22,692 bases of DNA from Armatimonadota bacterium (GTDB taxonomy: Bacteria; Armatimonadota; UBA5829; DTLH01): positions 1 to 22,692 of the forward strand of contig JBDKSP010000041.1 in the NCBI GenBank assembly GCA_039680575.1, written 5' to 3'. Under the pieces are notes generated by a model. That model did not search any database. It was not told the DNA's origin and was given only the letters and a program-made list of their open reading frames with translations. Below, piece by piece: positions 3,404-17,326 of the stretch (its first letter is position 1; every line of letters begins with the position of its first letter). Position numbers and translations under genes: made by a program.

Positions 3404-3844
3404 ATGAAATTACGAGCGCTCGTCATTGATGACTCAAGAGTAATGCGCAACATGGTAATGGAGTCCCTCCGCCGGACACAGTTAGCGGACTTCGAGTTTT
3501 CAGAAGCCGAAGACGGTGCCGACGGGGTCACGAAATTCAACCCGAAAGCCACAGATATTGTCTTCGTGGACTGGAATATGCCCAAAATGAGCGGCATAGA
3601 CTTCGTCCGCAAAATCCGCGCCACCCACAAAAACTGCGATGTCCCGATCATAATGGTGACCAGCGAAAAGACGATGGGCAAGGTCGAAGAAGCGCTGGAC
3701 AAAGCAGGCGCTAATGCTTACATAGCTAAACCGTTCACCATCGAATACATGCAGAAGAAAATCAGCCCTATCGTAAATGAGCTCGAAGCAAAGGGCGGTT
3801 CGAAACAAGGAAAGGGATTCTTCGGCAAACTGATGGGAGGCTAG
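3404..3844 (+). CDS. cheY: CheY-like single-domain response regulator with C-terminal amphipathic tail
   Basis: VIDDS, DWNMP, MVTS, AKPF. Start moved to ATG 3404 because GGAGG lies at 3391-3395. Confidence 0.9.
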   Translation: MKLRALVIDDSRVMRNMVMESLRRTQLADFEFSEAEDGADGVTKFNPKATDIVFVDWNMPKMSGIDFVRKIRATHKNCDVPIIMVTSEKTMGKVEEALDKAGANAYIAKPFTIEYMQKKISPIVNELEAKGGSKQGKGFFGKLMGG

Positions 3845-3911
3845 CAGCTTAAGCCGGTCAGAAAGAAAAATCAACTAAATCAATTTTGATCATAGCCTGA
3901 TGGAGTGACAT

Positions 3912-4424
3912 ATGGCAGATTTAAAAACAAATACACAGCAGATACCGGATGAGCTTTCAGAGTGTGTCAGGCAGTCTGTTTTAACAAATATTGAAATGAT
4001 GCTGGGCGTAGAGTTGTCCAGTCGAGATAGTGATGGGGTTGACCTGCCGTGCGAAGGGATAACAGGGATAATCTCCCTGATAGGCGATGTTTCATGGTCT
4101 CTTATGGTGTGTTTACCCCGCGATACAGCCACGGCTGTTGCGGTCGGGTTTGTCGGCTTCGAGGTTCCGTTCGAGAGTGCGGACATGGGCGATGTAGTCG
4201 GCGAGTTGGCGAACATCCTTGCAGGTGATATATCGGCAAGGCTGGACGCGCTCGGGGTCAAAGCGGCTCTGTCGCTTCCTACAGTGCTTCGCGGCAAAGA
4301 TATAGACCTTCTGTTGCCTGAAGGAACACCCAGTGTGCGGCATATTTTCAGTTCATCTTTGGGGCAGTTCTCTGTGAGAATAACCGCAGGCGAACCCAGC
4401 CATATGAGAAGGTCGGGAGAGTAA
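3912..4424 (+). CDS. cheX: CheX/CheC-family CheY-P phosphatase
   Basis: GIISLIGD, DVVGELANILAG (ExxN), LSLPTVLRG. Confidence 0.88.
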   Translation: MADLKTNTQQIPDELSECVRQSVLTNIEMMLGVELSSRDSDGVDLPCEGITGIISLIGDVSWSLMVCLPRDTATAVAVGFVGFEVPFESADMGDVVGELANILAGDISARLDALGVKAALSLPTVLRGKDIDLLLPEGTPSVRHIFSSSLGQFSVRITAGEPSHMRRSGE

Positions 4425-4428
4425 GGTT

Positions 4429-15409: not shown

Positions 15410-15428
15410 CGTCTGAATCGGAAAGGAA

Positions 15429-15866
15429 ATGGATCAGCATATGGCGCTCAATATTTTGGTGGTAGATGATAGTCTGGTAATGCGCACTATGATTATAAAA
15501 ACCCTTCGTCTGAGCGGATTGGAACTCGGCGAGATATATCAGGCTTCGAACGGGCAGGAGGGTCTGCGGGTCCTGGAAGACAACTGGGTGGACCTTGCTC
15601 TGGTCGATATCAACATGCCTGTGATGAGCGGAGAAGAGATGATCGACAAGGTAAGACAGGACCCGGGAATATCGGACCTTCCGGTGGTAGTCGTATCCAC
15701 CGAAAGCAGCGAGACCCGCATAGAGATGCTCCAGAAAAAGGGAGCGGAGTTCGTGCATAAACCATTCACACCGGAGATTCTCCGGGAGACTATTACGGGC
15801 GTTACGGGGGTTACAAATGAGCAAGGTTCAAGCGGAACTGATGAGTTCAGCGGTAATGACTTTTGA
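15429..15866 (+). CDS. cheY: CheY-like single-domain response regulator
   Basis: LVVDDS, DINMP, VVSTE, HKPF. Start may be 15441. Confidence 0.9.
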   Translation: MDQHMALNILVVDDSLVMRTMIIKTLRLSGLELGEIYQASNGQEGLRVLEDNWVDLALVDINMPVMSGEEMIDKVRQDPGISDLPVVVVSTESSETRIEMLQKKGAEFVHKPFTPEILRETITGVTGVTNEQGSSGTDEFSGNDF

Positions 15867-16305
15867 GGATATGGGCTTTGTTTTCGCCATGCCCGAACTC
15901 GAGGAAGAGCATCACACTGCTCCGTTCGAGGGGGCTGCCGAGGTAGGTTTCAGTGGTCCGTTCAGCGGCAGGTTGATTATAAGCCTTTACGGGCAGATGA
16001 TGGGCGAGCTTGCGGCCAACATGATGGGTGAAGACGAGCCGCCACCTGTCCAACAGCAGCATGACGCGCTTGGAGAGATCGCCAATGTGATCTGCGGGAA
16101 TGTTCTCCCGAAAGTGGGAGGCTCGCGAGAGATTTTCTATATAAGTGCGCCGCGTTATATCGAGCAGCCGAATGAGCTGGACCAGCATGCGGACAATGAT
16201 TCTTCCGTGCAGGTAAGCGTCCCTCTGGATGACGGTAGAGCTGACGTAACGCTCTTTGTCAAGGATTGGAGATTTGAAGATGATCCGGGTACTGGTGGTA
16301 GATGA
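15817..16305 (+). CDS. cheX: CheX-like phosphatase
   Basis: [20 protein letters not shown] (ExxN). Confidence 0.8.
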
Positions 16306-17326
16306 TTCAGCGATCGTTCGACGGGTACTGACCGATGAGCTTTCAAAATATGCAGACATCGAGGTAGTCGGCACTGCTGTGGACCCTTATGTGGCACGGG
16401 ATAAGATCGTGAGCCTCAAGCCCGATGTTGTCACGCTCGACCTTGAGATGCCTCGGATGGACGGACTGTCGTTTTTGGTCAAGCTGATGAAGCATTTCCC
16501 AATTCCGGTGATAGTAGTCAGCTCACTTACGCCTGCCAACAGCGAAACAGCGCTAAAAGCGCTGGAAATAGGCGCTATAGATGTGATTGCGAAGCCGGGT
16601 TCCGCATATTCTACACCTGATGTGGACCGCCAGCTTGTTCGGTCGATAAGGGCTGCGGCAACCGCGCGAGTCGCCAGGAAAGAGCCTGTACAAGAGGTTG
16701 TTTCGGCAGTGCAGGAGGACTCACGAAAGCTCCTGTCGCGGACCACGCATAAAATCCTGGCTATCGGCGCATCGACCGGCGGTACGCAGGCAATAGAAGC
16801 GGTCCTCAAGGGATTTCCGGCGGACATACCCGGGACAGTGATCGTCCAGCATATGCCCGAGTACTTTACAAAGACATTCTCGGAAAGACTGAACCGTGAG
16901 TGCCGGATGGAGGTGCGCGAGGCTTCCGATGGGGACATCGTAGTGCCCGGCGTGGCGCTTGTTGCTCCCGGAAACTATCACATGGTGCTCGAGCGAAGCG
17001 GCGCCAAGTATCAAGTCAGGATAAAGACCGGTCCGGCTGTATATCATCAGAGGCCGAGCGTGGACGTGTTGTTCCAGTCGGTGGCCAAAAACGCCGGCCA
17101 GAACGCTGTTGGAGTGATTCTTACCGGAATGGGCGCGGACGGTGCAAAAGGGCTGCTGGAGATGCGCCAGGCAGGAGCATACACGATAGCGCAGGATGAG
17201 AAAAGCTGTACGGTCTTCGGCATGCCCAAAGAAGCCATAAATCTGGGCGCCGCAGTGCGGGTTATACCGCTTAACCGGATAGCGGATTCGGTCCTGGGTC
17301 ATCTGTATCAACAGGCAGCGGCCTGA
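16280..17326 (+). CDS. cheB: Chemotaxis methylesterase CheB (REC + methylesterase)
   Basis: LDLEMP; catalytic GASTGG, VQHMP and TGMGADG motifs intact. Start set at ATG 16280. Confidence 0.97.

Follow-up and report, generated by a model that had tools for sequence, protein, structure and literature searches.

Deletion of cheW and a receptor gene from an Armatimonadota chemotaxis operon, and a second cheW-receptor locus that likely serves it

We have studied a chemotaxis operon on contig JBDKSP010000041.1 of an Armatimonadota bacterium (GenBank assembly GCA_039680575.1, here G000; 122 contigs, 96.8% complete). The window, that is, the whole stretch of DNA analysed, is 22,692 nucleotides long and carries the operon at 3404 to 17326; all genes and features described below lie on its plus strand. 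It is highly probable that this F7-like operon lost its own cheW and mcp (which encodes a methyl-accepting chemotaxis protein, MCP) by deletion, and that it likely works with a second cheW-receptor locus dropped from the assembly, likely steering the flagellar motor. An initial annotation had seen in the cluster a rewired system in which cyclic di-GMP (c-di-GMP) stands in for receptors, and had named receptors supplied from elsewhere in the genome as the alternative. It is the alternative that holds, given the second, duplicated cheW and the MCP sequence found in an assembly gap.

The operon was compared with those in a set of 41 genomes, that of the window and those of relatives, 18 of which have a CheA match (a genome was called CheA-negative if it had no match at E ≤ 1e-30). 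All 17 CheA-positive genomes other than that of the window also have an MCPsignal match. Orthologous clusters were found in five genomes of other genera (G002, G003, G012, G021 and G022), where the order is cheY-cheX-cheA-cheW-mcp(s)-cheR-cheD-cheY onward. The core order cheA-cheW-mcp-cheR-cheD-cheB is visible in G002, G012 and G022, the stretch of G021 shows the order up to cheY, and the cluster of G003 is broken inside its mcp. The porin, hybrid histidine kinase and GGDEF-protein genes of the window are not in the orthologous clusters of any of these five genomes. The same-genus genome G001, whose CheA is 89% identical to that of the window, has every window gene together with a cheW and a gene for a 628-aa MCP, which sit between the porin and the kinase. 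It is evident that relatives have cheW-mcp at this position, and that the window keeps the cheA-cheR-cheD-cheB order minus the deleted cheW-mcp, with remnants at the expected place. The porin after cheA is a genus-specific insertion, and the kinase and GGDEF insertion also looks genus-specific. Since in G001 cheW-mcp is preceded by the porin and followed by the kinase and c-di-GMP enzyme, the three extra genes are not one receptor-replacing block, and because G001 holds all three together with cheW and mcp, they did not replace the receptor, which contradicts the rewired reading. Sequence of cheW and mcp exists elsewhere in the genome, as described below, and the kinase-GGDEF block is shared with G001 rather than unique to this assembly.

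We further counted the genes between cheA and cheR in 60 other loci with both genes on one piece, taken at a length of at least 6 kb from among L043-L157; the locus of G001 was excluded, its cheA-cheR distance being above the 12-kb limit. In 47 of the 60 loci cheA stands immediately before cheR, and cheW (a label that can include CheA pieces) or mcp lies between them in 10, whereas a kinase or GGDEF protein was found there in 0 of the 60. Receptor-less che clusters are common in the related group. A scan of metagenomes with CheR gave no close relative, the top match being 58%. One unrelated metagenome contig (L088, 1-1032) has a Porin_O_P gene, 27% identical, just before cheR-cheD of the same cluster kind, so that the link of a porin to the che cluster may recur.

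The place of the deletion is still readable. The gap between the porin and kinase genes is 275 nucleotides long in the window versus 2947 in G001, and alignment splits it into five pieces: a hairpin, a repeat piece, two mcp remnants and the kinase leader. Remnant 1 (8329..8394) matches the upstream region and first codons of the G001 mcp1 without the start codon (10 of 11, 12 of 12 and 37 of 43 nucleotides identical), and remnant 2 (8400..8455) corresponds to about codons 296-314 of the G001 gene (46 of 56 nucleotides identical) and joins the kinase upstream region at 8456. Against the deleted segment of G001 the two remnants score 63 and 68, and the maxima of 300 shuffles each are 27 and 29. 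The initial annotation was right that the window holds no intact receptor or stand-alone cheW gene, and it missed these mcp remnants at 8329-8455. The GC-rich hairpin that follows the porin (8233..8258) is identical to G001 at 23 of 25 nucleotides, with a z of -4.1 for 8218-8300; it is missing from the list of our terminator scan because it has no T-run, and is a possible candidate terminator or processing site.

At the site of the cheW deletion lies a fragment (8280..8335) of an abundant intergenic repeat, with 88 BLAST hits outside the window contig and no match to the deleted segment of G001 (score 20, shuffle maximum 27). The repeat occurs at about 135 places on 75 of the 122 contigs, 46 of them within 150 nucleotides of a contig end, and another piece, with a weaker match, is found between cheR and cheD (about 14795-14837, 3 hits). 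An IS3-like insertion sequence end, suggested by loose ends at the deletion site, was rejected, as the piece belongs to this scattered repeat, and no obvious transposase frame was seen beside the repeat copies among those listed. It is conjecture that this repeat favoured the loss of cheW.

The scar region was read against four sequencing runs (X1 to X4). A contig from X2 (record 9; 24 differences in 1082 nucleotides) and one from X3 (record 13) bridge the scar junctions, X1 spans the scar region, and X4 has no cover there. X1 is possibly the source sample, and X2 and X3, both from one other study, represent a different strain. The deletion of the in-operon cheW-mcp is therefore real and common to at least two strains. 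An assembly artefact was rejected as its cause, since contigs of the other strain bridge the scar and the gap is a mosaic of remnants.

We then turn to the rest of the genome. A hidden Markov model (HMM) search of the assembly gave 0 MCPsignal matches, and the sole CheW match lies inside CheA. The MCP and free CheW are missing from this search because they fall in an assembly gap. A relaxed search showed contig C116 to begin with the 36 final codons of an MCP-like gene, whose identity to the MCP tails of relatives is 53-58%, and in G001 a matching tail lies close to the start of contig C61. At its end, contig C3 of G001 also carries a second stand-alone cheW; contig C71 of G000 runs collinear to this stretch of C3 and ends about 40 nucleotides upstream of the start of the second cheW. 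When the second cheW of G001 was read against four runs (X1, X2, X3 and X5), one short contig per run was found to span the whole gene in three of them, with 46-47 differences in 570 nucleotides from G001. The indels within it are mutually compensating, and 23 of the 28 differences listed in its CheW domain (40 listed overall) are at third codon positions. The depth of this contig is about twice that of the flanking single-copy contig: 64.3 versus 34-36 in X1, 19.7 versus 9.0 in X2 and 10 versus 4.3-5.1 in X3. On the upstream side, its loose end shares the last 14 nucleotides of C71, and the end of the flanking single-copy contig is found in C71.

Further contigs from X1, X2 and X3, at depths of 35.4, 16.9 and 10.1, match mcp remnant 2 over 33 nucleotides and then, as judged by eye, continue as a different MCP, so that an MCP paralog is present in three of the four runs. 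Since the end of C71 and the start of C116 are each single in the assembly, a tandem pair of cheW-mcp units is suggested. The simplest reading is that a cheW-mcp unit was duplicated and that its copies collapsed into short contigs, which were left out of the bin. The absence of MCP and CheW from the organism, which the HMM search had suggested, is overturned by the C116 tail, the C71 end and the double-depth cheW contig: the organism is not receptor-less, as the assembly gap holds a second, duplicated cheW together with more MCP sequence. Intact receptors would lie within the gap between C71 and C116 and would be used by the CheA of the window. Similar REC-LuxR genes, 45% identical, precede both che loci (window 2366-2998; C71 107598-108212), hinting that the operon and the second cheW-mcp locus have a common origin or are co-regulated.

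Comparable observations were made in other genomes of the family. Two tandem MCPs in G002 (locus L024) have equal-scoring signalling domains, and in both G001 (locus L022) and G003 the assembly is interrupted within an MCP locus, so that duplicated receptors and broken assemblies are seen repeatedly in this family. In a genome of the same family, G004 (98% complete), a contig end carries two MCP genes (L041, 2769-7506), but the genome gave no CheA or CheW match, possibly owing to another assembly gap or to true loss.

By its sequence the system is F7-like. The MCP of G001 aligns gap-free with MCP I (Tsr) at residues 313-563, over 251 residues. The receptors of E. coli are of the 36H class (PMC8235581) and the F7 class uses 36H receptors (PMC9321776), so the gap-free alignment points to an F7-like system. 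A phmmer search of the PDB also ranked 6s1k (1.5e-114) above the CheA entries 1b3q and 3ja6 (1e-93). The intact relatives share with F7, one of the classes of Wuichet and Zhulin as described in PMC9321776 and PMC7184735, the core cheA-cheW-mcp-cheR-cheD-cheB. The window cluster differs from F7 in its two cheY-cheX pairs, in a CheA with an MshEN-like segment at the usual place of P2 and an extra N-terminal region, in the inserted porin, hybrid kinase and REC-GGDEF-EAL genes, and in the in-operon cheW and mcp, which are deleted and would be supplied in trans. The mcp-less clusters of Desulfuromonas and Geobacter (beta-group, flagellum-adjacent) likewise have cheA, cheR, cheB, cheD and cheX with receptors encoded elsewhere, but they keep cheW according to the available text of PMC8235581, whereas here cheW is deleted too and the scar is still readable.

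The genome has fliM, the open reading frames (ORFs) around it read by eye as flagellar genes, and flagellin starts at two contig ends. Because the window CheA is the only CheA in the assembly of a flagellated organism, the system likely drives the flagellar motor. A third cheX lies inside the flagellar cluster (L173, 7193-7651; C93, 37192-37650), with an NCBIfam CheX E-value of 3e-14 that is below the cut-off. Among the 41 genomes, fliM was found in 30, and 12, including the single-contig G013, have fliM without a CheA match and represent flagella without a chemotaxis system in Armatimonadota.

Several points weigh against this explanation. The run evidence comes from one independent study, since X2 and X3 belong together and X1 is possibly the source sample; X5 gave nothing on the second cheW. 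The full second MCP is seen nowhere in one piece and is deduced from the 36-codon tail and short partial contigs, and a search of protein collections with the C-terminal 89 residues of the G001 MCP returned only that protein itself. The 36H class is shown for the in-operon MCP of G001, while the remaining MCP of the window organism is unassembled, and the F7-like label rests on gene order, the Tsr alignment and the PDB ranking. In the flagellar stretch that was read, no che genes other than the one cheX adjoin, and the N-terminus of FliM looks diverged from the familiar CheY-binding consensus. In favour of the explanation, all eight che genes are open with their motifs kept, and their ratios of nonsynonymous to synonymous change (dN/dS, throughout pairwise versus G001) are 0.04-0.15, compared with 0.02-0.19 in 13 control genes, kept of 14 after dropping one antisense frame with a dN/dS of 1.26; being pairwise, these values span both branches, and selection following the loss can be neither dated nor proved from them.

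The kinase and the c-di-GMP enzyme probably belong together. The membrane hybrid kinase (8493..12179; 1228 aa, identified by Pfam; 83% identical to G001, dN/dS 0.196) is composed of an N-terminal membrane sensor, PAS, HisKA, HATPase, two REC domains and HPt. The REC-GGDEF-EAL protein (12176..13906; 576 aa, identified by Pfam and motifs; dN/dS 0.097) belongs to a common family and carries the REC Asp, GGDEF, EAL, DDFG, EGVE and QG motifs, with an RxxD site five residues ahead of GGDEF; by these motifs it is predicted to be an active enzyme. As the initial annotation had it, the two genes overlap, by 4 nucleotides, and the enzyme gene ends 1 nucleotide ahead of cheR. The kinase sensor (window 8493-9875) belongs to no Pfam family, and homologues of these 461 N-terminal residues are found in 13 of the 41 genomes, its own included. 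In four of five fetched loci the sensor forms a direct fusion with a GGDEF-EAL part that shares 47-64% identity with the window enzyme, and in the fifth it heads a kinase. Two database proteins (P0102 and P0103, maybe partial) fuse REC-HPt to REC-GGDEF-EAL. These fusions support a relay from the kinase to the enzyme, and the earlier proposal that the two act together holds as a prediction from the overlap and the fusions. A sensor-to-c-di-GMP relay between the two genes would be independent of chemotaxis. A weaker homologue of the sensor precedes a GGDEF match on contig C115 of G000.

In its HisKA-HATPase-REC-HPt layout the kinase resembles those of the BarA, ArcB and TorS type (the best NCBIfam hits are BarA, TorS and ArcB, all below the cut-off), and its cognate REC-GGDEF-EAL protein comes from a family that is very common, with 7275 of 7997 scored candidates matching at E ≤ 1e-100. 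It differs from them in having two REC domains, a membrane sensor without a Pfam family and a place inside a che operon. Wsp-like systems have a CheA with a fused REC domain and a diguanylate cyclase output as a fixed component. The present cluster is similar to these in that a REC-containing c-di-GMP enzyme lies within a chemosensory cluster. It departs from them in that CheA has no fused REC by Pfam, the enzyme has its own kinase, and the enzyme is absent from the cheA-cheR interval in all 60 other loci and all five other-genus orthologous clusters.

A further possibility, compatible with the favoured explanation, is that c-di-GMP from the operon pair binds to CheA at an MshEN-like segment and adjusts kinase activity or the assembly of arrays, so that the insertion would link chemotaxis to c-di-GMP in addition to the usual receptors. 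CheA (4429..7008; 859 aa, identified by Pfam; closest PDB match the CheA 6s1k; dN/dS 0.111) is laid out as an extra N-terminal helical region, P1 (HPt), an MshEN-like segment at the position of P2, and P3-P5. The segment (residues 397-447; window 5617..5769) was recognized by profile, model and motif pattern. A profile of 18 CheA segments matches PilF (8e-12) and MshE 5htl (8e-6); the 18 were chosen by the motif pattern, so that the hit is partly circular, and a Pfam scan of the same segments gave no MshEN hit at E ≤ 1. The model of the segment (predicted local distance difference test score of 90) superposes on 5htl with a TM-score of 0.86 and a root-mean-square deviation of 1.3 Å (Foldseek E 0.22), and the top Foldseek hits are the c-di-GMP domains of PilF and MshE, with TM-scores of 0.81-0.86, a probability of 1.00 and an E-value of 0.2 for the 61-residue query.

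MshEN consists of two 24-residue RLGxx(LVI)(LVI)xxG...LxxxLxxQ motifs with a 5-residue spacer, and one guanine pocket of the V. cholerae domain is formed by the Leu of motif 1 together with two hydrophobic residues and the Gln of motif 2 (PMC5013675). The CheA segment resembles the domain of V. cholerae MshE (PDB 5HTL) and T. thermophilus PilF in its tandem-motif four-helix fold. Its motif 1 is near the consensus (one Leu is Ala), begins with RLG and ends in Gln. Motif 2 is degenerate, with Pro for Arg and Glu for the central Gly, and the spacer is 3 residues versus 5. The MshEN-like motif that the initial annotation had noticed in CheA is thus present as a predicted four-helix MshEN_N fold, but the full tandem motif is not. 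G399 and Q447 are invariant in all 18 aligned segments, which were picked by pattern, and one set of guanine-pocket residues is kept (L398, V440, L444 and Q447, compared with V. cholerae MshEN in PMC5013675); judged by the available description there, one of the guanine pockets seems preserved and the second degenerate. MshEN-CheA fusions are already listed in that paper, and our search of the literature, much of it in partial texts, found no binding test of c-di-GMP on a CheA.

Under a strict pattern the motif start is found in 22 of 72 CheA homologues covering the region, and the segment is also present in G002, G003, G012, G022 and Desulfobacterales CheAs, where no GGDEF protein lies between cheA and cheR. 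Its presence in such relatives indicates that it is older than the kinase-enzyme insertion. This order of events, the degenerate second motif with its short spacer and the 8 further GGDEF hits in G000 speak against such binding; the MshEN-like fold with one set of pocket residues, the enzyme gene abutting cheR and an arrangement that the two species of the genus both retain under purifying selection speak for it. We consider it rather unlikely, and just as unlikely that a sensor kinase and c-di-GMP enzyme were recruited to the operon to give, through a CheA with a working c-di-GMP site, a second input beside the receptors.

It is quite improbable that in-trans receptors are used and the output is not the flagellar motor, for example with CheA phosphorylating the REC-GGDEF-EAL protein in a Wsp-like manner. 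In its favour, the cluster includes the enzyme with its REC domain, FliM is diverged at its N-terminus as noted above, and F7 systems outside enterobacteria are often not flagellar in output (PMC7184735). The sole CheA of a flagellated genome and the che core kept by relatives without the enzyme argue the other way, as do the enzyme's own overlapping HPt kinase and related clusters that often adjoin flagellar genes, such as L046 and L047, where flgK and flagellin-type hits adjoin cheB.

A dying pathway, in which cheW and mcp were lost first and the other che genes have yet to decay, is very improbable. It would agree with the multi-step scar, with the limits of pairwise dN/dS and with the many flagellated relatives that have no che system (fliM in 30, cheA in 18 of the 41). 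Against it, while the deleted segment has by now been shortened several times, each of the eight che genes is still open and keeps its motifs, and the differences in the second cheW are mostly at third codon positions. The reading that there are no receptors and that the kinase and c-di-GMP enzyme drive CheA through the MshEN-like motif agrees with the empty HMM search of a nearly complete assembly and the true deletion of the in-operon cheW and mcp, but is scarcely credible in view of the coexistence of the block with cheW and mcp in G001, the double-depth second cheW and MCP pieces in runs and at contig ends, and the intact CheR, CheB and CheD, whose known substrates are MCPs.

The remaining genes of the operon are as the initial annotation gave them in content and place, all on the plus strand by the ORF list and the Pfam scan. 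The first cheY (3404..3844; 146 aa, Response_reg, 97% identical to G001, dN/dS 0.125) has a start that agrees with relatives, and is followed by the first cheX (3912..4424; Pfam CheX E 1.7e-14, GExxN motif). After cheA comes the porin gene (7054..8217; Porin_O_P family, outer membrane, E 2e-15; 89% identical to G001, dN/dS 0.13). The distal part consists of cheR (13908..14762; Pfam CheR and CheR_N, dN/dS 0.14), cheD (14927..15409; Pfam CheD, 0.112), the second cheY (15441..15866; Pfam, 0.05), the second cheX (15817..16305; Pfam, 0.121) and a cheB with a REC domain (16280..17326; Pfam, above the NCBIfam cut-off, 0.043). Every catalytic motif sought, under its familiar name, is present in CheA, CheR, CheD, CheB, the CheYs, the CheXs, the kinase and the enzyme. 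About 250 extra N-terminal CheA residues ahead of the HPt domain (window 4429-5170) are kept in relatives and gave only a weak IFRD hit; in G002 the N-terminal part of CheA is a separate ORF, possibly owing to an in-frame stop or a sequence error. Promoter and terminator scans of the window showed no excess over shuffles (10 versus 13.9 and 10 versus 11.2). Rfam gave 0 matches in the window and three loci, and so no c-di-GMP riboswitch there. At window 19927-20499 lies a gene for a stand-alone protein resembling the N-terminal domain of cyanophycin synthetase.

The favoured explanation, deletion of the in-operon cheW-mcp and use of a second locus, has the following course. The ancestral order was cheY-cheX-cheA-cheW-mcp-cheR-cheD-cheY-cheX-cheB. 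Synteny shows that in this genus the porin was added after cheA and the kinase and REC-GGDEF-EAL pair after mcp. The first cheW-mcp then eroded in this species, apparently in several steps, and probably since the second locus had left it redundant. The second CheW and its MCPs would form arrays with the CheA of the window. It is established that CheR, CheB and CheD act on MCPs; here they would adapt the MCPs, and the signal would be carried and then terminated by the CheYs and CheXs. Phosphate likely passes from the hybrid kinase via its REC and HPt domains to the REC-GGDEF-EAL protein, which would set c-di-GMP levels, and the pair may tune what is most likely an ordinary system for the control of swimming.

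An apparently intact chemotaxis pathway without receptors thus dissolves. A 97%-complete draft can miss every chemoreceptor and the free CheW, and because collapsed duplicates fall out of the bin, absence from an HMM search alone would here have led to a false claim. What remains, of modest weight, is the recent loss of a cheW-mcp pair that was redundant, its trace still readable, and, with a c-di-GMP enzyme encoded in the same cluster, a natural candidate for MshEN-type control of CheA by c-di-GMP.

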